NCBI GenBank assembly: GCA_964016885.1
Contig: OZ024744.1
Coordinates: forward strand, 124,992,001 to 125,056,000
Source: Eledone cirrhosa
Taxonomy: Eukaryota
DNA: 64,000 bases
Direction: 5' to 3'
Shown here: in pieces, positions 14,672-48,400 of the stretch
How positions within the stretch are numbered: the first letter of the stretch is position 1
Layout of the letters: every line of letters begins with the position of its first letter
Translations under genes and position numbers: made by a program
The notes under the pieces: model-generated
The model's input: the letters and a program-made list of their open reading frames with translations, nothing else
Databases searched by the model: none
What the model was told of the DNA's origin: nothing

Positions 14672-14727
14672 TTTGTACCCTGCTCGCAGTCTATGATGGT
14701 GTGTAGAGGGTGGCAGGTTGTTCTGGT

Positions 14728-18239: not shown

Positions 18240-19080
18240 TTTGGTTTTCGTTTTCTCGACGGCTAGCCGCATTTCGTGATCCGCCTTTCGATTGCGCTTC
18301 CGTCGCGGCAAAAGAATTGCCTTTCCAGACCGGACCGGACCCATGATAGAAGACGTTCGTTACCGTTGGAGCAACGCAAATTACTCCTCGGTTGACGCCA
18401 AAAACGAACGCCTTCCCGCCTCGCGCCGCCTTCTCCTCGCCGACCCTCGGCCTCGACGATTAGCCACTTTCCGTCACAGCAGTAGATACGCGTCCGTCGT
18501 AATAGCCGTCATTTTAACGCAGGAGAAACGCCTAATTGCCCTGCACCGCGTTTGACGGCGATCTACGACGGCGACGATGCGCGCACTCTTCCTTGCTGCG
18601 ACGAAGGTTTCGGCTTTTCGTCGTGGACCCGGTCAGGTCATGCCGCTGACCTCGCGTTACGGCGACGCGAGAAGACGTTCGTTACCGCTGGAGCAACGCA
18701 AATTACTCCTCGGTTGACGCCAAAAACGAACGCCTCGCGCCGCCGCTTCCTCCTCGGCCTCGACGATTAGCCGCTTTCCGTCACAGCAGTAGATACGCGT
18801 CCATCGTAATAGCCGTCATTTTAACGCAGGAGAAACGCCTTGACGACGATATACGACGGGTCGACGACGCGCGCACTCTTTCTGCTGCGACGAAGGTTTT
18901 GGCTTTTCGTTGTGGACCCGGTCGGGTCATGCCTCTGACCTCGCGTTGCGTCGCCACCGCCGCGGCGGGCTTGGGTTTAGCCGTAGCTACCCTCGTTTTG
19001 CCAACGGCGACGCGAGAAGACGTTCGTTACCGCTGGAGCAACGCAAATTACTCCTCGGATGAGGCCAAAAACGAACGCTG
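18240..19080 (+). repeat. Orphan GC-rich rDNA spacer/5'ETS-like repeats (~2.3 copies of ~330 bp); paralog at 59440-60287
   Basis: Shares GAAGACGTTCGTTACCGCTGGAGCAACGCAAATTACTCCTCGG and CGTAATAGCCGTCATTTTAA.GCAGGAGAAACGCC with 25314-26560, which lies upstream of the 18S start. Confidence 0.7.
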
Positions 19081-25085: not shown

Positions 25086-25223
25086 AGACGGCAAAGGCAC
25101 AACACACAACAGAAGAAAAGAACAATGACAATTATTATTATTATTATTATTATTATTATTTGTTTTATTAGTTTTATTATAATAAAAATTGTGCTGTTAG
25201 TTTGCTTGCTATACCATCATGTA

Positions 25224-25316
25224 CCCTAACCCTAAACCTAACCCCAACTCCAACTCTGACCCTAAACCTAACCCCAACCCCAACCCCAACCCTAACCCTA
25301 ACCCTAACCCTAACCC
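25224..25316 (+). repeat. Interstitial telomeric repeat (CCCTAA)n, degenerate on the left and perfect on the right
   Basis: CCCTAACCCTAACCCTAACCCTAACCC abuts the 172-bp array. Confidence 0.9.
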
Positions 25317-26249
25317 ACGATAGAAGACGTTCGTTACCGCTGGAGCAACGCAAATTACTCCTCGGTTGACGCCAAAAACGAACGCCTTCTCGACGGCTAG
25401 CCGCATTTCGTGATCCGCCTTTCGATTGCGCTTCCGTCGCGGAAAAAGAATTGCCTTTATAGGCCGCCGCCGCCGCCCGACCGGACCCACGATAGAAGAC
25501 GTTCGTTACCGCTGGAGCAACGCAAATTACTCCTCGGTTGACGCCAAAAACGAACGCCTTCTCGACGGCTAGCCGCATTTCGTGATCCGCCTTTCGATTG
25601 CGCTTCCGTCGCGGAAAAAGAATTGCCTTTATAGGCCGCCGCCGCCGCCCGACCGGACCCACGATAGAAGACGTTCGTTACCGCTGGAGCAACGCAAATT
25701 ACTCCTCGGTTGACGCCAAAAACGAACGCCTTCTCGACGGCTAGCCGCATTTCGTGATCCGCCTTTCGATTGCGCTTCCGTCGCGGAAAAAGAATTGCCT
25801 TTATAGGCCGCCGCCGCCGCCCGACCGGACCCACGATAGAAGACGTTCGTTACCGCTGGAGCAACGCAAATTACTCCTCGGTTGACGCCAAAAACGAACG
25901 CCTTCTCGACGGCTAGCCGCATTTCGTGATCCGCCTTTCGATTGCGCTTCCGTCGCGGAAAAAGAATTGCCTTTATAGGCCGCCGCCGCCGCCCGACCGG
26001 ACCCACGATAGAAGACGTTCGTTACCGCTGGAGCAACGCAAATTACTCCTCGGTTGACGCCAAAAACGAACGCCTTCTCGACGGCTAGCCGCATTTCGTG
26101 ATCCGCCTTTCGATTGCGCTTCCGTCGCGGAAAAAGAATTGCCTTTATAGGCCGCCGCCGCCGCCCGACCGGACCCACGATAGAAGACGTTCGTTACCGC
26201 TGGAGCAACGCAAATTACTCCTCGGTTGACGCCAAAAACGAACGCCTTC
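25314..26249 (+). repeat. 172-bp GC-rich tandem repeat, ~5.4 apparently identical copies (rDNA spacer/ETS-like)
   Basis: ORF starts at 25490/25662/25834/26006/26178 give period 172; the array lies 360 bp upstream of the 18S 5' end. Confidence 0.93.
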
Positions 26250-26606
26250 CGGTTCGGGCGACGTAAAAGTCTGTAGCCTTTTCGCCGATCCTCGACGATT
26301 ATCCGCCTTCCGAACAACCGCCTTTCCGCCGTCACAGCAGTAGGTACTCGTCCGTCGTAATAGCCGTCATTTTAATGCAGGAGAAACGCCTAAATGCACT
26401 GCGATTGACGACGATCTACGACGCGCTTACTCTTCCTTGCTGCGACGAAGGTTTCGTTCGGCTTTTCGTCGTGGACCCGGTCAGGTCATGCCGCTGATCT
26501 CGCGTTGCGTCGTTACCGCTGGAGCAACGCAAATTACTCCTCGTTTAACGCCAACATCGAACGCGCTTCGGTTCTCGGTCGTCGTTGTTTTGTTTCGTGC
26601 GGAAGA
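26250..26606 (+). other. 5' ETS-like sequence
   Basis: GC/CpG-rich DNA immediately 5' of the 18S start; positional inference. Confidence 0.6.
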
Positions 26607-26792
26607 TACCTGGGTGATCCTGCCAGTAGTCATATGCTTGTCTCAAAGCTTAAGCCATGCAAGTGGAAGTTCATGCCGTAAACGAAAATGGTGAAACCGC
26701 GAATGGCTCAGGAACCGGATCTAATCCTCGGGACCGTATTCCTCACCGCGAGGAGAGGATAACTGTGACAATTCTAGAGCTAATACATGCAA
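26607..26792 (+). pseudogene. 18S rRNA 5'-end fragment (diverged, truncated)
   Basis: TACCTGGGTGATCCTGCCAGTAGTCATATGCTTGTCTCAAAG.TTAAGCCATGCA, GGTGAAACCGCGAATGGCTCA and GGATAACTGTG..AATTCTAGAGCTAATACATGC match universal eukaryotic 18S motifs. Confidence 0.93.
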
Positions 26793-26796
26793 TTGA

Positions 26797-29700
26797 GATC
26801 GGAGAGGGAGCGATCCGTCTGCTTGATTCCGATAACGAACGAGACATTCGTATCCGAAAGAACGTTTGTCTGGAAACTGGTGCAGTCAGTGAGTCGAAAA
26901 AAAAATATCTCGGTGGTAGTAGCAAATATTCGAACGAGACATTCGTATGCGAAAGAACGTTTGTCGGTGGTAGTAGCAAATATTCGAACGAGACATTCCT
27001 ATGCGAAAGAACGTTTGTCTGGAAGTGGCGATCCATGCCCGGTGGATAGTTGGTTCCGGGTTTTACTATGATTGTTGCAAAACAGAAACTTAAAGGGATT
27101 GACAGAATTTGCGATTCCGGAGAGAGGGCGATCCGTCTGCTTGATTCCGATAACGAACGAGACATTCGTATCCGAAAGAACGTTTGTCTGGAAACTGGTG
27201 AGTCAGTGAGTCGAAAAAAAAATATCTCGGTGGTAGTAGCAAATATTCGTATGCGAAAGAAAAGATCTCGGTGGTAGTAGCAAATATTCGAACGAGACAT
27301 TCGTAGGCGAAAGAAAAATATCTCGGTGGTAGTAGCAAATATTCGAACGAGACATTCGTATGCGAAAGAACGTTTGTCGGTGGTAGTAGCAAATATTCGA
27401 ACGAGACATTCGTATGCGAAAGAACGTTTGTCGGTGGTAGTAGCAAATATTCGAACGAGACATTCGTATGCGAAAGAACGTTTGTCTGGAAGTGGCGATC
27501 CATGCCCGGTGGATAGTTGGTTCCGGGTTTTACTATGATTGTTGCAAAACAGAAACTTAAAGGGATTGACAGAATTTGCCATTCCGGAGAGGGGGCGATC
27601 CGTCTGCTTGATTCCGATAACGAACGAGACATTCGTATCCGAAAGAACGTTTGTCTGGAAACTGGTGAGTCAGTGAGTCGAAAAAAAAATATCTCGGTGG
27701 TAGTAGCAAATATTCGTATGCGAAAGAAAAGATCTCGGTGGTAGTAGCAAATATTCGAACGAGACATTCGTAGGCGAAAGAAAAATATCTCGGTGGTAGT
27801 AGCAAATATTCGAACGAGACATTCGTATTCGAAAGAACGTTTGTCTGGAAGTTGCGATCCATGCCCGGTGGATAGTTGGTTCCGGGTTTTACTATGATTG
27901 TTGCAAAACAGAAACTTAAAGGGATTGACAGAATTTGCGATTCCGGAGAGGGGGCGATCCGTCTGCTTGATTCCGATAACGAACGAGACATTCGTATCCG
28001 AAAGAACGTTTGTCTGGAAACTGGTGAGTCAGTGAGTCGAAAAAAAAAATATCTCGGTGGTAGTAGCAAATATTCGAACGAGACATTCGTATGCGAAAGA
28101 ACGTTTGTCGGTGGTAGTAGCAAATATTCGAACGAGACATTCGTATGCGAAAGAACGTTTGTCGGTGGTAGTAGCAAATATTCGAACGAGACATTCGTAT
28201 GCGAAAGAACGTTTGTCTGGAAGTGGCGATCCATGCCCGGTGGATAGTTGGTTCCGGGTTTTACTATGATTGTTGCAAAACAGAAACTTAAAGGGATTGA
28301 CAGAATTTGCGATTCCGGAGAGGGGGCGATCCGTCTGCTTGAATCCGATAACGAACGAGACATTCGTATCCGAAAGAACGTTTGTCTGGAAACTGGTGAG
28401 TCAGTGAGTCGAAAAAAAAATATCTCGGTGGTAGTAGCAAATATTCGAACGAGACATTCGTATGCGAAAGAACGTTTGTCGGTGGTAGTAGCAAATATTC
28501 GAACGAGACATTCGTATGCGAAAGAACGTTTGTCTGGAAGTGGCGATCCATGCCCGGTGGATAGTTGGTTCCGGGTTTTACTATGATTGTTGCAAAACAG
28601 AAACTTAAAGGGATTGACAGAATTTGCGATTCCGGAGAGGGGGCGATCCGTCTGCTTGATTCCGATAACGAACGAGACATTCGTATCCGAAAGAACGTTT
28701 GTCTGGAAACTGGTGAGTCAGTGAGTCGAAAAAAAAAATATCTCGGTGGTAGTAGCAAATATTCGTATGCGAAAGAAAAGATCTCGGTGGTAGTAGCAAA
28801 TATTCGAACGAGACATTCGTAGGCGAAAGAAAAATATCTCGGTGGTAGTAGCAAATATTCGAACGAGACATTCGTATTCGAAAGAACGTTTGTCTGGAAG
28901 TTGCGATCCATGCCCGGTGGATAGTTGGTTCCGGGTTTTACTATGATTGTTGCAAAACAGAAACTTAAAGGGATTGACAGAATTTGCGATTCCGGAGAGG
29001 GGGCGATCCGTCTGCTTGATTCCGATAACGAACGAGACATTCGTATCCGAAAGAACGTTTGTCTGGAAACTGGTGAGTCAGTGAGTCGAAAAAAAAATAT
29101 CTCGGTGGTAGTAGCAAATATTCGTATGCGAAAGAAAAGATCTCGGTGGTAGTAGCAAATATTCGAACGAGACATTCGTAGGCGAAAGAAAAATATCTCG
29201 GTGGTAGTAGCAAATATTCGAACGAGACATTCGTATGCGAAAGAACGTTTGTCGGTGGTAGTAGCAAATATTCGAACGAGACATTCGTATGCGAAAGAAC
29301 GTTTGTCGGTGGTAGTAGCAAATATTCGAACGAGACATTCGTATGCGAAAGAACGTTTGTCTGGAAGTGGCGATCCATGCCCGGTGGATAGTTGGTTCCG
29401 GGTTTTACTATGATTGTTGCAAAACAAAAACTTAAAGGGATTGACAGAATTTGCGATTCCGGAGAGAGGGCGATCCGTCTGCTTGATTCCGATAACGAAC
29501 GAGACATTCGTATCCGAAAGAACGTTTGTCTGGAAACTGGTGAGTCAGTGAGTCGAAAAAAAAATATCTCGGTGGTAGTAGCAAATATTCGAACGAGACA
29601 TTCGTATGCGAAAGAACGTTTGTCGGTGGTAGTAGCAAATATTCGAACGAGACATTCGTATGCGAAAGAACGTTTGTCTGGAAGTGGCGATCCATGCCCG

Positions 29701-32700
29701 GTGGATAGTTGGTTCCGGGTTTTACTATGATTGTTGCAAAACAGAAACTTAAAGGGATTGACAGAATTTGCCATTCCGGAGAGGGGGCGATCCGTCTGCT
29801 TGATTCCGATAACGAACGAGACATTCGTATCCGAAAGAACGTTTGTCTGGAAACTGGTGAGTCAGTGAGTCGAAAAAAAAAATATCTCGGTGGTAGTAGC
29901 AAATATTCGAACGAGACATTCGTATGCGAAAGAAAAATATCTCGGTGGTAGTAGCAAATATTCGAACGAGACATTCGTATGCGAAAGAACGTTTGTCTGG
30001 AAGTGGCGATCCATGCCCGGTGGATAGTTGGTTCCGGGTTTTACTATGATTGTTGCAAAACAGAAACTTAAAGGGATTGACAGAATTTGCGATTCCGGAG
30101 AGGGGGCGATCCGTCTGCTTGATTCCGATAACGAACGAGACATTCGTATCCGAAAGAACGTTTGTCTGGAAACTGGTGAGTCAGTGAGTCGAAAAAAAAA
30201 ATATCTCGGTGGTAGTAGCAAATATTCGAACGAGACATTCGTATGCGAAAGAACGTTTGTCGGTGGTAGTAGCAAATATTCGAACGAGACATTCGTATGC
30301 GAAAGAACGTTTGTCGGTGGTAGTAGCAAATATTCGAACGAGACATTCGTATGCGAAAGAACGTTTGTCTGGAAGTGGCGATCCATGCCCGGTGGATAGT
30401 TGGTTCCGGGTTTTACTATGATTGTTGCAAAACAGAAACTTAAAGGGATTGACAGAATTTGCGATTCCGGAGAGAGGGCGATCCGTCTGCTTGATTCCGA
30501 TAACGAACGAGACATTCGTATCCGAGAGAACGTTTGTCTGGAAACTGGTGAGTCAGTGAGTCGAAAAAAAAATATCTCGGTGGTAGTAGCAAATATTCGA
30601 ACGAGACATTCGTATGCGAAAGAACGTTTGTCTGGAAGTGGCGATCCATGCCCGGTGGATAGTTGGTTCCGGGTTTTACTATGATTGTTGCAAAACAGAA
30701 ACTTAAAGGGATTGACAGAATTTGCGATTCCGGAGAGGGGGCGATCCGTCTGCTTGAATCCGATAACGAACGAGACATTCGTATCCGAAAGAACGTTTGT
30801 CTGGAAACTGGTGAGTCAGTGAGTCGAAAAAAAAATATCTCGGTGGTAGTAGCAAATATTCGAACGAGACATTCGTATGCGAAAGAACGTTTGTCGGTGG
30901 TAGTAGCAAATATTCGAACGAGACATTCGTATGCGAAAGAACGTTTGTCTGGAAGTGGCGATCCATGCCCGGTGGATAGTTGGTTCCGGGTTTTACTATG
31001 ATTGTTGCAAAACAGAAACTTAAAGGGATTGACAGAATTTGCGATTCCGGAGAGGGGGCGATCCGTCTGCTTGAATCCGATAACGAACGAGACATTCGTA
31101 TCCGAAAGAACGTTTGTCTGGAAACTGGTGAGTCAGTGAGTCGAAAAAAAAATATCTCGGTGGTAGTAGCAAATATTCGTATGCGAAAGAAAAGATCTCG
31201 GTGGTAGTAGCAAATATTCGAACGAGACATTCGTAGGCGAAAGAAAAATATCTCGGTGGTAGTAGCAAATATTCGAACGAGACATTCGTATTCGAAAGAA
31301 CGTTTGTCTGGAAGTTGCGATCCATGCCCGGTGGATAGTTGGTTCCGGGTTTTACTATGATTGTTGCAAAACAGAAACTTAAAGGGATTGACAGAATTTG
31401 CGATTCCGGAGAGGGGGCGATCCGTCTGCTTGATTCCGATAACGAACGAGACATTCGTATCCGAAAGAACGTTTGTCTGGAAACTGGTGAGTCAGTGAGT
31501 CGAAAAAAAAAATATCTCGGTGGTAGTAGCAAATATTCGAACGAGACATTCGTATGCGAAAGAACGTTTGTCGGTGGTAGTAGCAAATATTCGAACGAGA
31601 CATTCGTATGCGAAAGAACGTTTGTCGGTGGTAGTAGCAAATATTCGAACGAGACATTCGTATGCGAAAGAACGTTTGTCTGGAAGTGGCGATCCATGCC
31701 CGGTGGATAGTTGGTTCCGGGTTTTACTATGATTGTTGCAAAACAGAAACTTAAAGGGATTGACAGAATTTGCGATTCCGGAGAGGGGGCGATCCGTCTG
31801 CTTGAATCCGATAACGAACGAGACATTCGTATCCGAAAGAACGTTTGTCTGGAAACTGGTGAGTCAGTGAGTCGAAAAAAAAATATCTCGGTGGTAGTAG
31901 CAAATATTCGAACGAGACATTCGTATGCGAAAGAACGTTTGTCGGTGGTAGTAGCAAATATTCGAACGAGACATTCGTATGCGAAAGAACGTTTGTCTGG
32001 AAGTGGCGATCCATGCCCGGTGGATAGTTGGTTCCGGGTTTTACTATGATTGTTGCAAAACAGAAACTTAAAGGGATTGACAGAATTTGCGATTCCGGAG
32101 AGGGGGCGATCCGTCTGCTTGATTCCGATAACGAACGAGACATTCGTATCCGAAAGAACGTTTGTCTGGAAACTGGTGAGTCAGTGAGTCGAAAAAAAAA
32201 ATATCTCGGTGGTAGTAGCAAATATTCGTATGCGAAAGAAAAGATCTCGGTGGTAGTAGCAAATATTCGAACGAGACATTCGTAGGCGAAAGAAAAATAT
32301 CTCGGTGGTAGTAGCAAATATTCGAACGAGACATTCGTATTCGAAAGAACGTTTGTCTGGAAGTTGCGATCCATGCCCGGTGGATAGTTGGTTCCGGGTT
32401 TTACTATGATTGTTGCAAAACAGAAACTTAAAGGGATTGACAGAATTTGCGATTCCGGAGAGGGGGCGATCCGTCTGCTTGATTCCGATAACGAACGAGA
32501 CATTCGTATCCGAAAGAACGTTTGTCTGGAAACTGGTGAGTCAGTGAGTCGAAAAAAAAAATATCTCGGTGGTAGTAGCAAATATTCGAACGAGACATTC
32601 GTATGCGAAAGAACGTTTGTCGGTGGTAGTAGCAAATATTCGAACGAGACATTCGTATGCGAAAGAACGTTTGTCGGTGGTAGTAGCAAATATTCGAACG

Positions 32701-34078
32701 AGACATTCGTATGCGAAAGAACGTTTGTCTGGAAGTGGCGATCCATGCCCGGTGGATAGTTGGTTCCGGGTTTTACTATGATTGTTGCAAAACAGAAACT
32801 TAAAGGGATTGACAGAATTTGCGATTCCGGAGAGGGGGCGATCCGTCTGCTTGATTCCGATAACGAACGAGACATTCGTATCCGAAAGAACGTTTGTCTG
32901 GAAACTGGTGAGTCAGTGAGTCGAAAAAAAAATATCTCGGTGGTAGTAGCAAATATTCGAACGAGACATTCGTATGCGAAAGAACGTTTGTCTGGAAGTG
33001 GCGATCCATGCCCGGTGGATAGTTGGTTCCGGGTTTTACTATGATTGTTGCAAAACAGAAACTTAAAGGGATTGACAGAATTTGCGATTCCGGAGAGGGG
33101 GCGATCCGTCTGCTTGATTCCGATAACGAACGAGACATTCGTATCCGAAAGAACGTTTGTCTGGAAACTGGTGAGTCAGTGAGTCGAAAAAAAAAATATC
33201 TCGGTGGTAGTAGCAAATATTCGAACGAGACATTCGTATGCGAAAGAACGTTTGTCGGTGGTAGTAGCAAATATTCGAACGAGACATTCGTATGCGAAAG
33301 AACGTTTGTCGGTGGTAGTAGCAAATATTCGAACGAGACATTCGTATGCGAAAGAACGTTTGTCTGGAAGTGGCGATCCATGCCCGGTGGATAGTTGGTT
33401 CCGGGTTTTACTATGATTGTTGCAAAACAGAAACTTAAAGGGATTGACAGAATTTGCGATTCCGGAGAGAGGGCGATCCGTCTGCTTGATTCCGATAACG
33501 AACGAGACATTCGTATCCGAGAGAACGTTTGTCTGGAAACTGGTGAGTCAGTGAGTCGAAAAAAAAATATCTCGGTGGTAGTAGCAAATATTCGAACGAG
33601 ACATTCGTATGCGAAAGAACGTTTGTCTGGAAGTGGCGATCCATGCTCGGTGGATAGTTGGTTCCGGGTTTTACTATGATTGTTGCAAAACAGAAACTTA
33701 AAGGGATTGACAGAATTTGCGATTCCGGAGAGGGGGCGATCCGTCTGCTTGATTCCGATAACGAACGAGACATTCGTATCCGAAAGAACGTTTGTCTGGA
33801 AACTGGTGAGTCAGTGAGTCGAAAAAAAAATATCTCGGTGGTAGTAGCAAATATTCGTATGCGAAAGAAAAGATCTCGGTGGTAGTAGCAAATATTCGAA
33901 CGAGACATTCGTAGGCGAAAGAAAAATATCTCGGTGGTAGTAGCAAATATTCGAACGAGACATTCGTATTCGAAAGAACGTTTGTCTGGAAGTTGCGATC
34001 CATGCCCGGTGGATAGTTGGTTCCGGGCTTTACTATGATTGTTGCAAAACAGAAACTTAAAGGAATTGACAGAATTTT
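26797..34078 (+). repeat. rRNA-derived modular satellite, ~21 units of 263-467 bp with an internal 54-bp module
   Basis: Units contain 18S motifs (CGATTCCGGAGAGGG.GC; TTCCGATAACGAACGAGAC; GGTTCCGGG..GTTGCAAA..GAAACTTAAAGG.ATTGAC) and a 28S motif (GATCTCGGTGGTAGTAGCAAATATTC.AACGAGA). Confidence 0.92.
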
Positions 34079-34104
34079 CGAATCGACATCAACTCGGCTA
34101 CGGC

Positions 34105-34450
34105 TATCCCGTCGAGTACGAGAGTATCGCGGGATCAGAGCAACGGTTTGCTAGGCTGCCTCTGAGCGATAACGGCTGAACGCCTCCTCTAAGCCGGAAC
34201 CCTAGCCGGACCCGAGTTGTTTTTCGACAAGCGTCTCGACCTTCTTAAGGCCCATGCCTTAGTTTGGCGATTGCCGTCCGTTCGCCGACGGCGGCAGCGT
34301 CAGCGGAAATGCCATTCTGTGACGACTACGACGATTCGTCGTCGTCGTCGTCCATTCGATTTCCTGAAAGAGATAGAGACTAAAGTGATCAAATTGTTCG
34401 GAGTTACGTGCTTAGTAGAGCAGCTACCACACTGCAATCTATTGAGAGTT
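34105..34450 (+). pseudogene. 28S rRNA 3'-end remnant (deleted and diverged)
   Basis: AGTACGAGAG (34115), CTGAACGCCTC..TCTAAG (34176) and AGTAGAGCAGCTACCACACTGCAATCTATTGAGAG (34414-34448) appear in the correct 28S order. Confidence 0.8.
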
Positions 34451-34885
34451 TTCTGACGAACGATACAATCCGCCCACGTGGCGCCAGAAAGGGAGAAGAA
34501 AAGAAAAGTTAGACGCCGCCGATCGATCGGTTCGTTGTTTTACGTGTACACAGCTTGTGTGTGTGTCTGTATGTGATACAAGCCGCCTATCCGTCTTCCA
34601 AGTAAGTTTTGTGTGTAGACTGCGGAAAGAAATCCAATCCGCCGTCTAGGCGGTTCTGCCGCCGACCCATACTTTTGCGAGTCGCTCCCGGGAAAGACAG
34701 GCGGCAAGACGGCGTGTATACACGACGCCTTCCGTCTTCCGCCTCGAACCCGGGCAAACGTTCCTTTATTCGTCCACGCCTTCCCGCTTCGATCGCGAGA
34801 AAGTAATCAATCTGTTTTGTGTGTGTGTCTGTGTGTGATACAAATTTGTTTTCTTAATTTGATAACCATGAATTGTTTCAACACC

Positions 34886-34903
34886 GGCCCTTTTAAGGGC
34901 CAC
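34886..34903 (+). promoter_or_regulatory. Replication-dependent histone mRNA-type 3' stem-loop (orphan)
   Basis: acacc-GGCCCT-TTTA-AGGGCC-AC: 6-bp stem, 4-nt loop and AC 3' flank fit the consensus; no histone CDS upstream. Confidence 0.55.
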
Positions 34904-35480
34904 TTATATTTTCAATAATCAGTTTAAATGGGTTGCACCGTAGCCACTTGGTAATACACTGCAAATCTCCCGTCAATCTATGAAGGTTTTGTAGTAGATT
35001 AGATCAAAACACAATCAGCAAGACAGTAATGGAATGAATAATATAAACATTTGTTTATAATTAAAGCCTTAAGATGTCCCTCCCTCCCTCCCTTCCTCCC
35101 TTCCTTCCTTCCTTCCTTCCTTCCTTACGATATACACTTTAATAACATTGAAACTTATTTAATAAGTTTAAATTTTAAACACTTTTTATTCAGACGTACC
35201 GCGATAAGTAACTAGATATGTTCTAACGAATAATCCGCGATGTGGCGAGGATTACCGCGATAGGAAATTAGATACGTTCCAAAGAAATATCCGCGAAAAG
35301 TGAACCGCGATATAGCGGGTTCACCAGCCAGTGTATTACTGGTACTTTATTTTATCGACCCCCATAAGGATGAAAGGCAAAGTTAACTGTGCAATAACAA
35401 AGGGAGATAACCTCGTCTTTTTTTTTTTACGGAGTTATTTCCCTTTAAATTTTATCTATTACTTATGATGATACAATTTA

Positions 35481-35613: not shown

Positions 35614-35882
35614 GGGTCTGAGTTCAAATCACGCCGAGGAGGTTAACTTTGCCTTTCATCCTTACGGGGTCGGTCGGAAAACGAACCATTCCCGGTTCGC
35701 TTTCGAAGCGGGTTTCCGAAAACAGCGCTTCTCTCGACCGGGCCCGTCGTCCGCTCGGCGGTGGTTTTCATCGTCCCAGGCACGGCTAACAGGCGGAGAC
35801 GGGACAAACGCGCGTGTTCCTTTTTTTTATCAGCCGCAGCGCCGTTCGTATATATGCTTAGGTTGTTTTTTTTTTAAATATC

Positions 35883-36113
35883 CTAAGTTAAGTTGGGGCT
35901 AAGTTAAGTTGGGGCTAAGTTAAGTTGAGGTTAAGTTGAGTTGGGGTTAAGTTAAGTGGGGGTTAAGTTAAGCTGGGGTTAAGTTAAGTTGAGGTTAAGT
36001 TAAGTTGGGGTTAAGTCAAGTTGGGGTTAAGTTAAGTTGGGGTTAAGTTAGGTTGGGGTTAAGTTAGGTTGGGGTTAAGTTAAGTTGGGGTTAAGTTAGG
36101 TTGCGGTTAAGTT
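35883..36113 (+). repeat. 16-bp G-rich telomere-like repeat (GGGGTTAAGTTAAGTT)n, ~14 copies
   Basis: Directly visible; includes GTTAGG variants. Confidence 0.92.
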
Positions 36114-36115
36114 AC

Positions 36116-39100
36116 ATTCGCCGCCGGACTTCAGCTTCCTCATTTAGCATGGGCAGTTTTTCGTGAAAATCACACCACACACAGCAAATGTGTGTCCGCA
36201 CATGTACCAGTAATTACAGATCGATTCCGGTGAAAATTCACTGAAAACGGGCCATCCGGCCCTGTGCGTCGATCGTGGGCCGGCCGGATGTTGACGGATC
36301 GATGTGTAATTAGAAGTACATGTGCGGACACTCATTGGCTGTGCGTGGTATGCATTTCAGCAAGATATCTCCGTAACATCAAGAGTTATGGCTGTGGAGG
36401 CACACCTAGTCAAACGTAAACAAGGTCTGGAGCGTTTACGCTTCGCGATTTTGTTTACGTTTGACTAGGTGTGCCTCCACAGCCACAACTCTTGATGTTA
36501 CGGAGATATCTTGCTGAAATGCATACCGCGCACAGCCAATGAGTGTCCGCACATGTACTTCTAATTACACATCGATCCGTCAACATCCGGCCGGCCCACG
36601 ATCGACGCACAGGGCCGGATGGCCCGTTTTCAGTGAATTTTCACCGGAATCGATCTGTAATTACTGGTACATGTGCGGAGACACATTTGCTGTGTGTGGT
36701 GTGATTTTCAAGAAAAACTGCCCATGCTAAATGAGGAAGCTGAAGTCCGCCGGCGAATGGTGTGCTTCGAAGAAAACTAATTCGAAAATGACCGTTTGCA
36801 GGCGGAGTAACCTTTTCGATCGTGGGCCAGCCGCCCGTGGTGGGATCCATCTGTAATTACTGGTACATGTGCGGACATACATTTGCTGTGTGTGGTGTGA
36901 TTTTCAAGAAGAACTGCCCATGCTAAATGAGGAAGCTGAAGTCCGCCGGCGAATGGTGTGCTTCGAAGAAAACTAATTCGAAAATGACCGTTTGCAGGCG
37001 GGGTAACCTTTTCGATCGTGGGCCAGCCGCCCGTGGTGGGATCCATCTGTAATTACTGGTACATGTGCGGACACACATTTGCTGTGTGTGGTGTGATTTT
37101 CGAGAAAGACTGCCCATGCTAAATGAGGAAGCTGAAGTCCGCCGGCGAATGGTGTGCTTCGAAGAAAACTAATTCGAAAATGACTATTTGCCGGCGGAAT
37201 CACCTTTTCGGTCCTGGTCCGGCCGGATCTTGCCGGATCGATCGGAAATTTGTGGACCATGTTCGGAAGGCCATTGTGCATGTGTGGTGAAAAAAATTTG
37301 TGTCGAAATCTTCTCGGAAAATAACGGATCGCCGGCGGAGATTGCCATTTCGATCGTGGGCCGGCCGGATCTTGTCGGATCGATTCGGACATATGTGCAT
37401 CGTGTTCGCAAGGCCCTTGTCTATGTGTGGTGTGATTTTCATAAAGAAATTCCGAAAAACCCAGTTTTAAATCTGATTTCGCCAAAGAATTTTGGCTATC
37501 AGATCGGGTTGAAAGGTATGGTTTCAGGTCGATCTGAAAGTCTAAAATGGAATTCACTCGGTTAGCTAACTTTTGATATATCGGAGATATCTTTCTGAAA
37601 ATCACACCACACACTCCCAATGAGTGTCTGCAAATGTACCAGTAATTACAGATGGATCCCACCACGGGCGGCCGGCCCACGATCGAAAAGGTTACTCCGA
37701 AGCACACCATTCGCCGGCGGAATTCATTTACCATGGGCAGTTTTTCTCGAAAATCACACCACACACAGCCAATGAGTGTCCGCACATGTACCAGTAATTA
37801 CAGATGGATCCCACCACGGGCGGCTGGCCCACGATCGAAAAGGTTACTCCGCCTGCAAACGGTCATTTCGAATTCGTTTTCTTCGAAGCACACGATTCGC
37901 CGGCGGACTTCAGCTGCCTCATTTAGCATGGGCAGTTTTTCTCGAAAATCACACCACACACAGCAAATGTGTGTCCGCACATGTACCAGTAATTACAGAT
38001 CGATTCCGGTGAAAATTCACTGAAAACGGGCCATTCGGCCCTGTGCGTCGATCGTGGGCCGGCCGGATGTTGACGGATCGATGTGTAATTAGAAGTACAT
38101 GTGCGAACACTCATTGGCTGTGCGTGGTATGCATTTCAGCAAGATATCTCCGTAACATCAAGAGTTATGGCTGTGGAGGCACACCTAGTCAAACGTAAAC
38201 AAGCTCTGGAGCGTATACGCTTCGCGATTTTGTTTACGTTTGACTAGGTGTGCCTCCACAGCCACAACTCTTGATGTTACGGAGATATCTTGCTGAAATG
38301 CATACCACGCACAGCCAATGAGTGTCCGCACATGTACTTCTAATTACACATCGATCCGTCAACATCCGGCCGGCCCACGATCGACGCACAGGGCCGGATG
38401 GCCCGTTTGCAGTGAATTTTCACCGGAATCGATCTGTAATTACTGGTACATGTGCGGACACACATTTGCTGTGTGTGGTGTGATTTTCACGAAAAACTGC
38501 CCATGCTAAATGAGGAAGCTGAAGTCCGCCGGCGAATGGTGTCCTTCGAAGAAAACTAATTCGAAAATGACCGTTTGCAGGCGGAGTAACCTTTTCGATC
38601 GTGGGCCAGCCGCCCGTGGTGGGATACATCTGTAATTACTGGTACATGTGCGGACACACATTTGCTGTGTGTGGTGTGATTTTCGAGAAAGACTGCCCAT
38701 GCTAAATGAGGAAGCTGAAGTCCGCCGGCGAATGGTGTGCTTCGAAGAAAACTAATTCGAAAATGACTATTTGCCGGCGGAATCACCTTTTCGGTCCTGG
38801 TCCGGCCGGATCTTGCCGGATCGATCGGAAATTTGTGGACCATGTTCGGAAGGCCATTGTGCATGTGTGGTGAAAAAAATTTGTGTCGAAATCTTCTCGG
38901 AAAATAACGGATCGCCGGCGGAGATTGCCATTTCGATCGTGGGCCGGCCGGATCTTGTCGGATCGATTCGGACATATGTGCATCGTGTTCGCAAGGCCCT
39001 TGTCTATGTGTGGTGTGATTTTCATAAAGAAATTCCGAAAAACCCAGTTTTAAATCTGATTTCGCCAAAGAATTTTGGCTATCAGATCGGGTTGAAAGGT

Positions 39101-41525
39101 ATGGTTTCAGGTCGATCTGAAAGTCTAAAATGGAATTCACTCGGTTAGCTAACTTTTGATATATCGGAGATATCTTTCTGAAAATCACACCACACACTCC
39201 CAATGAGTGTCTGCACATGTACCAGTAATTACAGATGGATCCCACCACGGGCGGCCGGCCCACGATCGAAAAGGTTACTCCGAAGCACACCATTCGCCGG
39301 CGGAATTCATTTACCATGGGCAGTTTTTCTCGAAAATCACACCACACACAGCCAATGAGTGTCCGCACATGTACCAGTAATTACAGATGGATCCCACCAC
39401 GGGCGGCTGGCCCACGATCGAAAAGGTTACTCCGCCTGCAAACGGTCATTTTCGAATTCGTTTTCTTCGAAGCACACGATTCGCCGGCGGACTTCAGCTG
39501 CCTCATTTAGCATGGGCAGTTTTTCTCGAAAATCACACCACACACAGCAAATGTGTGTCCGCACATGTACCAGTAATTACAGATCGATTCCGGTGAAAAT
39601 TCACTGAAAACGGGCCATTCGGCCCTGTGCGTCGATCGTGGGCCGGCCGGATGTTGACGGATCGATGTGTAATTAGAAGTACATGTGCGGACACTCATTG
39701 GCTGTGCGTGGTATGCATTTCAGCAAGATATCTCCGTAACATCAAGAGTTATGGCTGTGGAGGCACACCTAGTCAAACGTAAACAAGCTCTGGAGCGTAT
39801 ACGCTTCGCGATTTTGTTTACGTTTGACTAGGTGTGCCTCCACAGCCACAACTCTTGATGTTACGGAGATATCTTGCTGAAATGCATACCACGCACAGCC
39901 AATGAGTGTCCGCACATGTACTTCTAATTACACATCGATCCGTCAACATCCGGCCGGCCCACGATCGACGCACAGGGCCGGATGGCCCGTTTTCAGTGAA
40001 TTTTCACCGGAATCGATCTGTAATTACTGGTACATGTGCGGACACACATTTGCTGTGTGTGGTGTGATTTTCACGAAAAACTGCCCATGCTAAATGAGGA
40101 AGCTGAAGTCCGCCGGCGAATGGTGTGCTTCGAAGAAAACTAATTCGAAAATGACCGTTTGCAGGCGGAGTAACCTTTTCGATCGTGGGCCAGCCGCCCG
40201 TGGTGGGATACATCTGTAATTACTGGTACATGTGCGGACACACATTTGCTGTGTGTGGTGTGATTTTCGAGAAAGACTGCCCATGCTAAATGAGGAAGCT
40301 GAAGTCCGCCGGCGAATGGTGTGCTTCGAAGAAAACTAATTCGAAAATGACTATTTGCCGGCGGAATCACCTTTTCGGTCCTGGTCCGGCCGGATGTTGC
40401 CGGATCGATCGGAAATTTGTGGACCATGTTCGGAAGGCCATTGTGCATGTGTGGTGAAAAAAATTTGTGTCGAAATCTTCTCGGAAAATAACGGATCGCC
40501 GGCGGAGATTGCCATTTCGATCGTGGGCCGGCCGGATCTTGTCGGATCGATTCGGACATATGTGCATCGTGTTCGCAAGGCCCTTGTCTATGTGTGGTGT
40601 GATTTTCATAAAGAAATTCCGAAAAACCCAGTTTTAAATCTGATTTCGCCAAAGAATTTTGGCTATCAGATCGGGTTGAAAGGTATGGTTTCAGGTCGAT
40701 CTGAAAGTCTAAAATGGAATTCACTCGGTTAGCTAACTTTTGATATATCGGAGATATCTTTCTGAAAATCACACCACACACTCCCAATGAGTGTCTGCAC
40801 ATGTACCAGTAATTACAGATGGATCCCACCACGGGCGGCCGGCCCACGATCGAAAAGGTTACTCCGAAGCACACCATTCGCCGGCGGAATTCATTTAGCA
40901 TGGGCAGTTTTTCTCGAAAATCACACCACACACAGCCAATGAGTGTCCGCACATGTACCAGTAATTACAGATGGATCCCACCACGGGCGGCTGGCCCACG
41001 ATCGAAAAGGTTACTCCGCCTGCAAACGGTCATTTTCGAATTCGTTTTCTTCGAAGCACACGATTCGCCGGCGGACTTCAGCTGCCTCATTTAGCATGGG
41101 CAGTTTTTCTCGAAAATCACACCACACACAGCAAATGTGTGTCCGCACATGTACCAGTAATTACAGATCGATTCCGGTGAAAATTCACTGAAAACGGGCC
41201 ATTCGGCCCTGTGCGTCGATCGTGGGCCGGCCGGATGTTGACGGATCGATGTGTAATTAGAAGTACATGTGCGGACACTCATTGGCTGTGCGTGGTATGC
41301 ATTTCAGCAAGATATCTCCGTAACATCAAGAGTTATGGCTGTGGAGGCACACCTAGTCAAACGTAAACAAGGTCTGGAGCGTTTACGCTTCGCGATTTTG
41401 TTTACGTTTGACTAGGTGTGCCTCCACAGCGACAACTCTTGATGTTACGGAGATATCTTGCTGAAATTCATACCACGCACAGCCAATGAGTGTCCGCACA
41501 TGTACCTGTAATTACACATCGATCC
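36116..41525. repeat. Second array of the palindromic 1.58-kb satellite
   Basis: Offset 36551 from the first array. Inversion-centre loops start at 36424, 38203, 39787 and 41371. Confidence 0.95.
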
Positions 41526-41604
41526 GACGACGGACAGAGTATTCGGTTTATTTTCTTGACATATTTCTTTACATATTGTCCAGGCATGCACTTTTTCCAT
41601 GATT

Positions 41605-42432: not shown

Positions 42433-45400
42433 TTAATTTGGTTAATTAAGTTAACAGAAATTATGAACCGGTTTCTACAGAGCCTTCTGGACATTTAACC
42501 CTTTAGCATTTAAACCAGCCATACCTAGCCAGAATACTCTCACATCTTTCTGTTCAAACCAGCCATAACTGGCCACTCATACTGACGTTAAGGTATTGTT
42601 CTCAATATAAATAATATCAAAATCTCATAGATTCGATATTATATGAGATAATTATGTAAGATAAAGCCTTTACCACAAAAATACAATAGTATATATAGAG
42701 TAATAAAAATGCTAAAGGGTAAAAGTAGCTTATTATTTTGTGAGCTCTTGCTACTTATTGCTCTTGTGCATCAAGAACATACACAGCTTACATTTTGTTG
42801 CTAATCTCACTGAGATCCAACTACATCTCTTGTTTATCCATAGTTTGGAATTTCTACCTACTCCTTTCCTTTAGAATGATCAAGGCCATTTTCTTGTGGG
42901 GATCTAGGCCCTGTTTTCCTTTCTATTTTGCCAAGTTATCTTACATCACTTTCATTCTAGACCATGCTTCCAGGTTTGGAATTTCTCCTCTAATTTTACC
43001 ACAGATTAAGTGACAAGGGTTCAATCATGTGCATACAGGAGTTCCCATGGACAGCCAGTAATATGTAATAGCCTGCAGGATGATAATAAACAGAAGAGGG
43101 TTAATTACAGAGCCCTGATAGAGGGTTAATAACAGAGCCCTGATAGACTTGTTCACTCAACTCCTCACTATAGCCATCATTACTTTTAACCTTACTGACT
43201 GCTCCTCCATACATGGCTTTTACTGCTCTCACAAGCCACTCATATACCCCTAGTTTTCTAAGTTATACACCAGATTAGGGAAGGGGGAAGTCTCACAGAA
43301 GCTCTCTCTGGGTCAACAAATGCCAAGTAGAGGGGCTTATTTTAGCTAGGTACTACTCTTGCAGTTGCCACACAAGGAAGAGGACATCAGTGGTACTTTT
43401 ACCTGGCACAAATCCAAACTTCATCTCATCTAGGTTAACTTGGTCCCTAATCAGCTGTGTTATAAATCTAACACCTTCATGAAGTGGTCCATCTAATATC
43501 TCTATAGTTTTCTAGCTCTAGTACATCTCCTTTGCCCTTGTAGCAGTTGATGATGATGATACTACACCATTTATTTGGTATGACACCATTTTGTATTACA
43601 TGCTGTACGATACCAGTGGTTAAGATGTGACCCACCATCCCAGATACTTTCAGTATCTCAGCAACTATCACCAATGGACAAGATACTTTCTCTGTCTTCA
43701 TATCCTTAATTACCTTACTGCTTACTTGTATGGCTGGACCCTCTGTTGGGCCCACTTTCCGTAGACTATCTTCCTCCCATGCATTCTCCTCATTCAGTAA
43801 TCTTTCATAAAGGCATTTCCATGTTACAAAGGTTGGCTGAAAAGTTCATAGACTATCAATGATAGCATGATGCTAGAGCTGTGAAATCTTGCCTGCATTA
43901 ATTTCAACTCTTCTTATTAATAACTGCATTGTTTCCTTCCAGGGACTATGTTGAAAAATAAACCTCATTTGGTCATTCCATGAGTGTATCTTGGTCTGCC
44001 TATGAACTTTTCAGCTGACCCTATTCAGCATCAGTGAGCCCAAATGCCCCATTATCATCCTGGACACACTTTACCCCAACATCACAATTTGCCCTCACAC
44101 ACTGCCTCACAATCCTGAACATCTCATGTATTTCATCCTCACATCATAAAACCAACTGAAATTATATATTCTCTGCTTCCCTCCTTGCAAAGAATACTTC
44201 TTGCCTAGCTTCCTGTAGTGTACCCTCCAGCTGCCTCCATTCTGCCATTATTCCATGCCTGTCTCTTGGCCTTAACTGTCTCATCTACCCTAGTGTTTCA
44301 CCACCAAGATACTCTCCTCTCTGAAGCCCTGCTCCAGCCACAGATCTAGTTTGACACCTTCAGCAAAGGTTCTTTAAGGAACTCCCACTGTTCCCCTATA
44401 TTGTATGTTTCTATTTGTTCTTCCTTACTGTTGTAAAGATCAAACAAAATATCTCTAAATTTGGAACTGGCTGAGGGGTCCTTTAACTTCCATATCCTTC
44501 TCCTCCAAGTTGCCCTCAGTCTTCAAGTTCATCTAAGTCTATGAAATCACTAACTACTGGGTTATGTTGGGAGGTGCATTCTTCCCCAGGGGGTGGGGAT
44601 TGTGTGTTTACAAATGTCAATATCTCATCTTCTGGTGTGGATAAAAATCTGACTGGCATGCTCCTCTGACCAATAGGTGTTGAAGTGGTTGTCGGGTAAA
44701 CGTTAAGACCCTCTGATATACATATATATATATATACTAGCAGTGGTACCCGGCGTTGCACGGGATAACGTATTTCGGAACGCGGGCCGCCATCTTCCAC
44801 TTCAGCCGGTCGCCCTAAAGTGTTGGCTATTCAGTCTACTTGAGGCCAGTTGGTGAGGGGGGGTAAAGCTTTCAGTGTGCTACTACCCTCACGGTCAAAT
44901 AGAAAGGGAGAGGAAGAAAAGTCAGCGTTAATATCGTGCTACACGTTTGAAAGGTTGGATGACCTTAGAGTTCACCAGGGTGGGGGGTTCTAAAAGTATC
45001 TATCTTGGTATTTTATCTTAGAAGTAATCATTACAGAGTGTACTGGGTGTATTTTAGTGGGCAGTAATTCCATAAAGAACACAGTATAATCTGTGGACAC
45101 AAGCCTTGCAGTGTGATTACAGGCAGGTTAATGGGAAAGATAGATTATATATGTGACATGATGTACATGAGAAGTGAGGACACAGACCACACATGAAATA
45201 GATTCCTACAACTGTCAGGGAGGCTCCCTAGAATTACAGATGACATATTTCAATATCTCGGTGATCAAGTTAGCAGTGGAGGAAGAATCTCTAAAAGTGT
45301 AATACCCAGGATAAGGACAGGCTGGAAGAAGTTTAGAGTACTGTTCCATCTGTTGACAACAAAGGGCTTCTCTCTCAGAATGGAGGCTAGACTGCTTGAT

Positions 45401-48400
45401 ACTTATGTGTGGTCTGCAATCTACACCCCAGCCATGCCCCTTCCACTACCACTCCTTAGCTATTTCTCTCCATTAATACTCCTCACATTTCAAGCAGTTT
45501 TCTCATCTCAATGAAAGAAAAATATTGGGCTCAAGAGAAGTCTTCAGTTATGCCATGGTGTGGCAACCTCCCTAGGGTTGGGCAGAGTGTAAATGAGAGT
45601 GAAATTAGGTATGAGAGGGATCAGATGCAGTATACAAGAGAGTAGATTACATTGGTATGGTCATGTGATGGGTATAAAGGATGACAGCTGTATAAAAATG
45701 TGCTGGGCAATCAAAGTTGATGGAAGTTATGAAGGCGGAAGACCTAGGATGACCTGGGATGAGGTGATAAAAGATGACTTTGCACAATTGCAACTCTCAA
45801 AGACAATGACACAGGATAGAGATCTTATTTATGTTTATTTACGTTTAGCGTAATCGATTTGTTTTCGATTTGTTTCCATATCACCACGCGTTTTATTTCA
45901 TAGTCATAGTTATCAAGTTAGAAAACAAATGAAGTTCAGGGGGCCGACACTACCGACTTTCTTAAAGAAAAACAATTTAACGCGGGTAACTACAAGATAG
46001 GCATCAGTAGTAGTAGCTCCCTAAACTGTTTCCATCCCATTCTCACTCAGGCTACTGTACCTTCAGAACACCCACCTCCACTGTTAATTTGGTTAATTAA
46101 GTTAACAGAAATTATGAACCGGTTTCTACAGAGCCTTCTGGACATTTAACCCTTTAGCATTTAAACCAGCCATACCTAGCCAGAATACTCTCACATCTTT
46201 CTGTTCAAACCAGCCATAACTGGCCACTCATACTGACGTTAAGGTATTGTTCTCAATATAAATAATATCAAAATCTCATAGATTCGATATTATATGAGAT
46301 AATTATGTAAGATAAAGCCTTTACCACAAAAATACAATAGTATATATAGAGTAATAAAAATGCTAAAGGGTAAAAGTAGCTTATTATTTTGTGAGCTCTT
46401 GCTACTTATTGCTCTTGTGCATCAAGAACATACACAGCTTACATTTTGTTGCTAATCTCACTGAGATCCAACTACATCTCTTGTTTATCCATAGTTTGGA
46501 ATTTCTACCTACTCCTTTCCTTTAGAATGATCAAGGCCATTTTCTTGTGGGGATCTAGGCCCTGTTTTCCTTTCTATTTTGCCAAGTTATCTTACATCAC
46601 TTTCATTCTAGACCATGCTTCCAGGTTTGGAATTTCTCCTCTAATTTTACCACAGATTAAGTGACAAGGGTTCAATCATGTGCATACAGGAGTTCCCATG
46701 GACAGCCAGTAATATGTAATAGCCTGCAGGATGATAATAAACAGAAGAGGGTTAATTACAGAGCCCTGATAGAGGGTTAATAACAGAGCCCTGATAGACT
46801 TGTTCACTCAACTCCTCACTATAGCCATCATTACTTTTAACCTTACTGACTGCTCCTCCATACATGGCTTTTACTGCTCTCACAAGCCACTCATATACCC
46901 CTAGTTTTCTAAGTTATACACCAGATTAGGGAAGGGGGAAGTCTCACAGAAGCTCTCTCTGGGTCAACAAATGCCAAGTAGAGGGGCTTATTTTAGCTAG
47001 GTACTACTCTTGCAGTTGCCACACAAGGAAGAGGACATCAGTGGTACTTTTACCTGGCACAAATCCAAACTTCATCTCATCTAGGTTAACTTGGTCCCTA
47101 ATCAGCTGTGTTATAAATCTAACACCTTCATGAAGTGGTCCATCTAATATCTCTATAGTTTTCTAGCTCTAGTACATCTCCTTTGCCCTTGTAGCAGTTG
47201 ATGATGATGATACTACACCATTTATTTGGTATGACACCATTTTGTATTACATGCTGTACGATACCAGTGGTTAAGATGTGACCCACCATCCCAGATACTT
47301 TCAGTATCTCAGCAACTATCACCAATGGACAAGATACTTTCTCTGTCTTCATATCCTTAATTACCTTACTTCATATCCTTAATTACCTTACTGCTTACTT
47401 GTATGGCTGGACCCTCTGTTGGGCCCACTTTCCGTAGACTATCTTCCTCCCATGCATTCTCCTCATTCAGTAATCTTTCATAAAGGCATTTCCATGTTAC
47501 AAAGGTTGGCTGAAAAGTTCATAGACTATCAATGATAGCATGATGCTAGAGCTGTGAAATCTTGCCTGCATTAATTTCAACTCTTCTTATTAATAACTGC
47601 ATTGTTTCCTTCCAGGGACTATGTTGAAAAATAAACCTCATTTGGTCATTCCATGAGTGTATCTTGGTCTGCCTATGAACTTTTCAGCTGACCCTATTCA
47701 GCATCAGTGAGCCCAAATGCCCCATTATCATCCTGGACACACTTTACCCCAACATCACAATTTGCCCTCACACACTGCCTCACAATCCTGAACATCTCAT
47801 GTATTTCATCCTCACATCATAAAACCAACTGAAATTATATATTCTCTGCTTCCCTCCTTGCAAAGAATACTTCTTGCCTAGCTTCCTGTAGTGTACCCTC
47901 CAGCTGCCTCCATTCTGCCATTATTCCATGCCTGTCTCTTGGCCTTAACTGTCTCATCTACCCTAGTGTTTCACCACCAAGATACTCTCCTCTCTGAAGC
48001 CCTGCTCCAGCCACAGATCTAGTTTGACACCTTCAGCAAAGGTTCTTTAAGGAACTCCCACTGTTCCCCTATATTGTATGTTTCTATTTGTTCTTCCTTA
48101 CTGTTGTAAAGATCAAACAAAATATCTCTAAATTTGGAACTGGCTGAGGGGTCCTTTAACTTCCATATCCTTCTCCTCCAAGTTGCCCTCAGTCTTCAAG
48201 TTCATCTAAGTCTATGAAATCACTAACTACTGGGTTATGTTGGGAGGTGCATTCTTCCCCAGGGGGTGGGGATTGTGTGTTTACAAATGTCAATATCTCA
48301 TCTTCTGGTGAGGATAAAAATCTGACTGGCATGCTCCTCTGACCAATAGGTGTTGAAGTGGTTGTCGGGTAAACGTTAAGACCCTCTGATATACATATAT

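Follow-up and report, generated by a model that had tools for sequence, protein, structure and literature searches.

The window analyzed here, 64,000 nucleotides of Eledone cirrhosa DNA (contig C28, 124,992,001–125,056,000, within a 3.0-Gb assembly), holds a minisatellite embedded in a deleted relic of a 45S ribosomal DNA (rDNA) unit. The monomer joins at least seven pieces from the 18S ribosomal RNA (rRNA) gene, internal transcribed spacer 1 (ITS1), and the 28S rRNA gene in non-native order, and this short monomer is repeated head to tail, which makes the array a satellite. The monomer probably goes back to a single event of assembly, in which error-prone DNA repair moved from template to template at short words that these have in common, and it is probably a non-functional passenger.

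A monomer of rearranged 18S, ITS1, and 28S pieces

Pieces were mapped with BLASTN (word size 7) against an intact 45S unit of the same genome, located on contig C12, in which the 18S gene measures 2,876 nt and the 28S gene 6,342 nt, with 10,539 bp from the first base of 18S to the last of 28S. Intact units were also located on C25 and C4. As a control for chance, 100 shuffled units were searched in the same way; their best matches have a median of 22.9 bits and a maximum of 28.3 bits. Against the intact unit, pieces B, D, and F score 58–72 bits, piece C 35.6 bits, and piece E 29.2 bits, so that five of the six sense pieces beat the best of the shuffles and the monomer is homologous to the species' rDNA beyond chance. 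Piece A (13–16 nt, 24.7–25.6 bits) falls inside the shuffle range when taken alone. By manual count, ~219 of the 263 bases of the minimal unit (~83%) trace to 45S rDNA.

The pieces follow one another as A-B-C-?-inverted ITS1-D-(C-D)n-C-?-E-F (Table 1), and the array closes with a partial A followed by the 28S end. The question mark stands for a 26-nt stretch for which no donor was found within six edits across the intact and dispersed rDNA stretches searched. Pieces B and D have a 10-nt word in common at their ends, which explains the return from D to C and, through it, the 54-bp subrepeat; the main period of the array arises because piece A stands at both ends. The inverted ITS1 piece, 13 nt and partly an A-run, is the sole such match on either strand in 12.7 kb.

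The first-pass annotation of this DNA had proposed about 21 tandem units between an 18S 5' end at 26607 and a 28S 3' end near 34450. All of this is borne out: 18S 1–191 aligns at 26607, 21 units can be counted from ~26798 to 34085, and 28S 5881 to the end of the gene lies at 34086–34470. The search against the species' own 45S unit likewise upholds the proposed fragments, whose matches exceed those of the shuffles except for piece A alone. A mosaic of rRNA fragments out of native order was thus correctly described in outline, but the piece called probable mid-18S is in fact ITS1 289–307 (19 of 19 bases identical), and 28S 1396–1413 had been overlooked. Nor is every piece sense, as had been stated: the segment GTCGA(n)TA, read on the opposite strand, gives the ITS1 bases that come immediately behind piece C. 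The parts of the unit reported as missing are indeed lost in the case of 5.8S, ITS2, and nearly all of 18S and 28S, but ITS1 289–307 is retained as piece C.

Around the array, the relic is laid out as 5' external transcribed spacer (ETS), 18S 1–191, array, 28S 3' end, and spacer. There is no rRNA match at the Rfam gathering score anywhere in the window, and no complete 18S, 5.8S, or 28S gene. Past the spacer, 34842–34914 and 34936–35319 both match one dispersed locus, with their order reversed.

Table 1. Features of the window; positions count from its first base, and positions preceded by − or + are relative to the 18S start and 28S end of the intact unit
Feature	Position	Strand	Remarks
Macrosatellite unit	1–36551	+	~38 kb; carries the relic; 1–4586 recurs at 36552–41137
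Telomere-like (TAACCC)n tract	25223–25316		Left edge of relic; 4-nt overlap (ACCC) at the join
5'ETS-derived sequence	25313–26288	+	Begins at −1949 of intact unit; 5.4 identical 172-bp subrepeats; lacks the candidate start motif TATATAGGGTA
5'ETS relic	26290–26606	+	−1122 to −880, an ETS subrepeat, then −44 to −1; ~840 bp of ETS lost
18S rRNA 1–191	26607–26797	+	5 substitutions in 189 aligned bases versus intact gene
Mosaic minisatellite	26798–34085	+	21 units of 263–467 bp with internal 42–55-bp subrepeats; last element a partial piece A
Piece A, first unit	26800–26811	+	18S 581–592 (575–592 in later units); alone not above chance
Piece B	26807–26845	+	18S 2042–2080; 38/39 identical; 5-nt overlap with A
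Piece C	26847–26865	+	ITS1 289–307; 19/19 identical
26-nt stretch (27 in first unit)	26866–26892		Source in rDNA not found
Inverted ITS1 piece	26893–26907	−	Copy of ITS1 directly following piece C; fold-back-type insertion
Piece D	26907–26945	+	28S 2083–2121 (2081–2124 in some units); then back to piece C
Piece E	27026–27043	+	28S 1396–1413; 17/18 identical
Piece F	27046–27107	+	18S 1843–1900 with altered middle; 82% identical; then back to piece A
28S 5881 to 3' end plus 32 bases of 3'ETS	34086–34506	+	Internal deletions of 26, 33, and 15 nt; 8% substitutions
3'ETS/intergenic-spacer relic	34557–34843	+	Best match +2071 to +2354 past 28S; then jump back to a spacer subrepeat
Non-rDNA flank	34842–35319	+	Two pieces of a dispersed palindromic-repeat locus in non-native order; Rfam histone stem-loop match inside

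Amplification, placement, and authenticity

The exact junction of 18S with the mosaic occurs at 59 places in the assembly (43 on C28, one on C18, and 15 on five small contigs), and a monomer marker has 917 exact matches. On C28, the junction copies form one 1.78-Mb block (124.72–126.45 Mb) in which macro-units are spaced 28–53 kb apart (median 37.8 kb), with three longer intervals of 71–91 kb. In the 32 of 59 copies that were measured, which hold 505 monomers, the array runs from 737 to 9,846 bp (median 5,800 bp; two to 30 units), a ~13-fold range. The 190 bp of 18S ahead of the array are identical in 31 of these 32 copies, and the 400 bp of 28S relic in 27 of 32 by an ungapped count. C28 and C18 hold none of the at least 29 5.8S matches listed and none of the 20 matches to an intact-18S marker; judged by contig content, the array has been amplified outside the functional rDNA arrays. 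We also considered the macro-unit as a long-spacer variant of the rDNA unit and rejected this, as each 40-kb rDNA unit on C4, the relics aside, has no more in common with it than two short dispersed-repeat matches.

The array is genuine DNA. Contigs from sequencing run X1, possibly the source of the assembly, include the 18S-to-mosaic junction over 76 bases with one differing letter, monomer junctions are present in contigs of X1, X4, X5, and X14 (four public runs from four studies), and the head-to-tail joint is seen in contigs of X4 and X5; this support consists of contigs built from public reads, and none of the pieces listed spans the whole array. An assembly or laboratory artefact, whether from collapsed reads or from a concatemer of universal rRNA primers or depletion probes, has already been largely refuted, and we give it next to no credence. 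Two neighboring arrays are equal in length, and several pieces coincide with conserved sites that we take to be common primer sites. The C28 block is, moreover, flanked on both sides by 200-N scaffold gaps, which also leaves its chromosomal placement uncertain. Against this, the pieces bear this genome's own rRNA letters as well as an ITS1 stretch, the 505 monomers of the 32 arrays have shared natural variants and varied subunit counts, and the C18 copy is linked to other sequence over 70 kb of gap-free assembly, in addition to the junctions found in the four runs.

Existence is thereby confirmed, and conservation is not. Monomer contigs in X4 and X5 have a depth of ~2–17 (36 for one inner-subrepeat contig) and zero to one differing letters, and stand beside unlike rDNA of those samples' own; X4 also contains this species' ETS at depth 4, and the monomer in X14 is at depth 3.8. 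Runs from 11 organisms contain 29%–58% of the words searched for, and contigs were examined in three of them (X4, X5, and X14). Other runs from the samples of X7, X8, and X9 contain none of these words, and a metagenome scan for the monomer gave 0 matches. We therefore set conservation across species aside, taking the shallow contigs and their almost unchanged letters to mean trace carry-over or the same species.

Most of the macro-unit is not rDNA; it consists of microsatellites, short tandem repeats, dispersed repeats and, in some copies, a long interspersed nuclear element (LINE). The C18 copy adjoins a long array of a palindromic satellite of 1.6–1.9 kb, which also forms part of the macro-unit. 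This satellite, with internal inverted arms and 196-bp subrepeats, occupies 1–4586 and 36115–41526 of the window and C18 from 6,746,545 to beyond 6,810,000; the array that it forms next to the C18 copy exceeds 60 kb and is a candidate for the true locus or for a heterochromatic block. The LINE-type element (11906–14779, minus strand) has a 957-aa open frame with an APE endonuclease and reverse transcriptase and is inserted in a TA repeat. The first C28 unit has it and C18 has part of it; neither the second macro-unit of the window nor the last unit on C28 contains it. The second macro-unit contains three tandem copies of ~3.65 kb (42433–53172), part of one of which is found in the first. No tRNA gene was detected in the window. 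Among the 51 reading frames scanned (68 were listed, of which 44 went to one scan and the rest were overlapping, simple-repeat, rDNA-relic, or scanned separately), 50, including two array frames, have no Pfam match above cut-off, and the sole match is the LINE.

Further rDNA debris is found nearby and elsewhere. Each macro-unit has a second, less deleted 5'ETS relic (18252–19078 and 59450–60285), preceded by a TAACCC-like tract and without the derived junctions of the main relic, and a separate 28S relic at 35678–35884 (28S 691–895, 87% identical) abuts a piece resembling a short interspersed nuclear element (SINE). A SINE-like sequence in the flank, taken with the very large rRNA genes, would suit an octopod cephalopod. 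Many dispersed rDNA copies, mostly colinear with deletions, lie on C1, C2, C3, C6, and C10 (loci L106–L114); L113 and L114, on different contigs, are 100% identical copies of 18S 1–411 only.

Origin of the monomer

Among the 12 junctions for which both donors are known, four overlap by 4–10 nt (4, 5, 10, and 4 nt), three overlap by 1–3 nt, and five carry a filler of 2–7 bases. Random joins within the unit overlap by at least 4 nt in 2.1% of cases, giving P = 8e-5 for the excess observed, or 1e-3 if one of the mutually dependent B/D and D/C junctions is dropped. The out-of-order joining extends into the spacer and the non-rDNA flank. An excess of junction microhomology, with short filler at other junctions, and a locally templated inverted piece, two features of complex templated insertions, are thus both present. 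At yeast breaks, fold-back and distant inverted templated insertions have been described (PMC11724301), and insertions there can combine two to four fragments and also draw on rDNA (PMC11372161). The inverted ITS1 piece has the pattern of such inverted insertions (PMC11724301), which supports template switching. The microhomologies, the fold-back piece, and the scrambling into the non-rDNA flank together favor template switching at the DNA level with end joining, which we consider the probable origin of the monomer over serial deletion or jumping by a reverse transcriptase.

The map of the pieces, the junction overlaps, the copy numbers, the length variation, and the divergence were all observed, and from them we infer the following course of events. 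A copy of an rDNA unit would first have moved to a site beside a telomere-like tract and a palindromic repeat, and its body would have been rebuilt by repeated microhomology-guided switching and end joining, of the type of break-induced replication mediated by microhomology (MMBIR) or alternative end joining, to yield 18S(1-191)-A-B-C-?-inverted ITS1-D-C-?-E-F-A'-28S(3' end). Through unequal exchange or slippage between the direct repeats in this product (A at both ends, C twice), A...F could then have grown into a minisatellite of ~300-bp units that has an inner repeat of 54 bp. After the relic had drifted ~5% from the intact genes, a recent tandem amplification would have brought the whole ~38-kb neighborhood to ~60 copies, with the length of the inner array still changing.

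Several observations weigh against this reading. Five of the 12 junctions have filler in place of overlap, another three overlap by only 1–3 nt, and the junction positions were called after the fact. Every piece longer than 15 nt is sense, and all rDNA-derived sequence falls between the last candidate start motif of the intact unit (−2167) and the first motif of the spacer (+2651); an RNA template would also give both. All five mature-rRNA pieces lie in the conserved core, which makes up at most ~57% of 18S plus 28S, so that on a rough estimate from model and gene lengths chance would place them there in ~6% of cases; core status was seen for piece A and is taken as background for B, D, E, and F. 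No single-unit ancestor, intermediate, or empty site was found, the shortest array among the 32 copies measured having two units. Finally, the test for selection described below has low power. Neither low GC content nor weak folding shows a clear trend as a basis for the choice of pieces (pooled GC 0.51 versus 0.58). Skipping of hairpins as a source of the small deletions gives a divided picture, with three of six deleted segments folding in the best 8%–15% of random windows and three outside.

In its first run (18S 1–191, A, B, C, D), the relic keeps the native order, and orientation is preserved when deletions occur between direct repeats. Both would follow if large deletions, by tandem duplication and random loss across three to four neighboring units of an rDNA array, had left A-B-C-D, C-E, F, and A'-28S end in order, the equally non-functional remnant being moved and amplified later. 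Such serial deletion seems to us unlikely. In its favor, this genome has dispersed rDNA copies that have lost large segments and stayed colinear (18S 1651 is joined to 28S 2816 on C10), and the loss of coding sequence from rDNA arrays has been described for a tomato rDNA-derived satellite (PMC2679016). However, it gives neither the inverted ITS1 piece nor the out-of-order non-rDNA flank, and it requires ~10 independent deletions, each leaving only 15–60 bases. None of nine stretches around dispersed rDNA copies shows such scrambling at 60-base resolution, although one of them, L106, has a single out-of-order piece of 73 bp.

The sense bias, and the fact that all rDNA-derived parts lie within a plausible primary transcript, could instead point to a LINE reverse transcriptase that jumped among rRNA, ITS1, and ETS fragments of pre-rRNA, the chimeric cDNA being inserted and later amplified. 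A LINE with endonuclease and reverse transcriptase is at hand in this macro-unit, and human LINE-1/28S chimeras exist, 83% of them sense (PMC13174262). We nevertheless hold this course of events to be decidedly improbable: neither end of the relic has LINE sequence or a poly(A) tail, the LINE is ~10.5 kb away and absent from the second macro-unit, and spacer sequence 2 kb beyond 28S is included. The chimeras described in that report carry one RNA segment of 50–482 nt, not a chain of 15–60-nt pieces (PMC13174262). An apparent histone mRNA end in the flank might have been taken for a sign of RNA origin; the Rfam match in question sits in one arm of the dispersed palindromic DNA repeat, and we discarded it. 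Membership in an rRNA-derived retroposon class was rejected too, as the copies are tandem and the relic ends in spacer joined to the palindromic repeat. This repeat, of which 34842–34914 is a part (a further example is L064 4876–4988), has arms of ~110 bp, a loop of 41 bp, and a stem-loop in each arm; its pattern has 108 matches in the genome, ~60 of them in macro-units and many others on C18 at 4.9–12.7 Mb.

Satellite monomers can seldom be observed coming into being, since their source is in most cases unknown or has diverged long ago. In this array, almost all bases lead back to a slowly evolving source that the genome still contains. The passage from a probable repair scar through a 54-bp subrepeat and a ~300-bp minisatellite to a 38-kb macrosatellite can be read, and can be dated against related species. 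There is also a practical side: in this species, estimates of rDNA copy number, fluorescence in situ hybridization with 18S/28S probes, and PCR with universal primers could all be misled by ~900 copies of conserved rRNA sites and by ~60 18S 5' ends that are nearly identical.

Function and relation to known rDNA-derived repeats

The first-pass annotation had suggested transcription as a pseudo-pre-rRNA, on the grounds that the span from 18S start to 28S end was close to that of a normal unit and that spacer- and ETS-like flanks were kept. The first argument, which was the main one, is wrong: the intact span is 10,539 bp against ~7.8 kb here, and array length varies ~13-fold among copies, so that a functional inference from unit-like length is not supported. 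As to the second, a 5'ETS relic and both rRNA ends are kept, and the upstream portion starts at −1949, downstream of the last copy of TATATAGGGTA, a candidate start motif for RNA polymerase I. In the three intact loci this motif recurs about every 700 bp of spacer and is last found at −2167, −2151, and −2119 from 18S; it is absent from the whole window. It resembles the arthropod start consensus (PMC2590618); a similar motif of stick insects has been put forward as a spacer promoter and start site (PMC2590618). The motif has 92 copies in 80 kb on C12, where (25,084,001–25,114,000; loci L029–L031) the rRNA genes are greatly expanded and the spacer consists of ~710-bp repeats, each with a candidate start motif.

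The mosaic pieces differ from the intact genes at eight of 183 sites (4.4%) and the flanking relics at 81 of 1,417 (5.7%; Fisher P = 0.61), which gives no sign of selection to stay rRNA-like, within the low power that 183 sites afford. Predicted folding of the monomer RNA is no better than that of shuffles (z = −0.90), and no box C motif was found on either strand, for which reason a multi-guide small nucleolar RNA was rejected. Protein coding was likewise dismissed, as no Pfam family passes the cut-off in the two array frames or in 48 others. Decay of CpG sites, looked for as a sign of methylation, is not seen (substitutions at 11 of 333 CpG sites versus 6.5% elsewhere). Six RNA runs (metatranscriptomes) contain 6%–7% of the words, near the 5.5% shared with intact rDNA, and provide no evidence either way. 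Taken together, these comparisons suggest that the array is likely a non-functional passenger, probably neutral.

It is very unlikely, in our estimation, that the array is a selected RNA-producing locus, giving rise to a pseudo-pre-rRNA, or to opposite-strand small RNAs against conserved 18S/28S sites, and acting as a decoy or rRNA regulator. What speaks for it are the ~900 copies of conserved rRNA sites, the retained 5'ETS relic and rRNA ends, and a hint from X1 that relic copies are about as many as intact genes: mosaic-type 18S 5' contigs have depths of 3,693–3,770 and intact-type contigs 3,633, although contig depth is not copy number. The missing candidate start motif, the 13-fold length variation, the substitution rate of the pieces, which is that of the flanks, and the lack of a stable fold or a box C motif on either strand all speak against it, as does the lack of any sign of a diverged homologue in the three runs from other organisms. 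A related proposal, that a repair scar made from the most conserved sites in 18S and 28S has been copied so often that it rivals the genuine rRNA genes in number and by now serves as a small-RNA or chromatin locus directed at rRNA, strikes us as hardly more than a long shot. If it were true, the minus strand would supply ~900 antisense copies of functional rRNA sites, which might guide the silencing or turnover of rRNA or pair with nucleolar rDNA, and debris of rDNA would have turned, by a new route, into a regulator of ribosome dosage. RNAs spanning the monomer junctions, if they exist, would make the locus a candidate rRNA regulator.

The first-pass annotation knew of no multi-fragment 18S/28S mosaic monomer, and no monomer of several 18S, ITS1, and 28S pieces came to light in a search of full-text literature that covered few subscription papers; an octopus rRNA preprint passage (PMC13321053) has no bearing on the matter. 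The monomer may have been catalogued earlier in repeat databases. SINE28 and 28S/LINE-1 chimeras (PMC10946416, PMC13174262) resemble the array in that sense rRNA fragments have been copied into the genome and multiplied; as described, they are dispersed, carry one rRNA segment, and bear LINE hallmarks, whereas the array is tandem and multi-fragment and has no LINE tail or poly(A). Human rDNA orphons (PMC5381670) are like the relic in being displaced units, with remnants of spacer, 18S, and 28S, that lie in a repeat-rich region and decay by substitution and deletion. Those reported there are degraded near-full-length units, whereas here a scrambled core has been amplified ~900-fold.

Among repair systems, the nearest are the templated insertions of yeast (PMC11724301, PMC11372161), with which MMBIR and polymerase-theta end joining can be grouped. 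They share with the array short fragments, some microhomology, inverted pieces from the same locus, and an rDNA donor. Those reports deal with isolated events in experimental cells, each comprising two to four fragments; in the array, no fewer than seven pieces are joined and fixed in a germ line, and they have become the monomer of a satellite.

Satellites derived from subrepeats of the rDNA intergenic spacer are known in plants, including tomato, Nicotiana, Vicia, and Vigna (PMC2679016, PMC8724763). As in the array described here, a tandem repeat has arisen from a decaying rDNA unit and been amplified away from the functional genes with the loss of most coding sequence, and the expanded 172-bp ETS subrepeat of the relic is a further likeness. 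In the plant cases reported, the monomer is a pre-existing spacer subrepeat and coding sequence has been eliminated. The monomer here is neither a pre-existing spacer subrepeat nor one contiguous segment; it is new, is made mainly of 18S and 28S with ITS1, and is, unlike the plant satellites, nested in a second repeat of 38 kb. The array belongs with the rDNA-derived satellites as a most likely neutral member with a new architecture.

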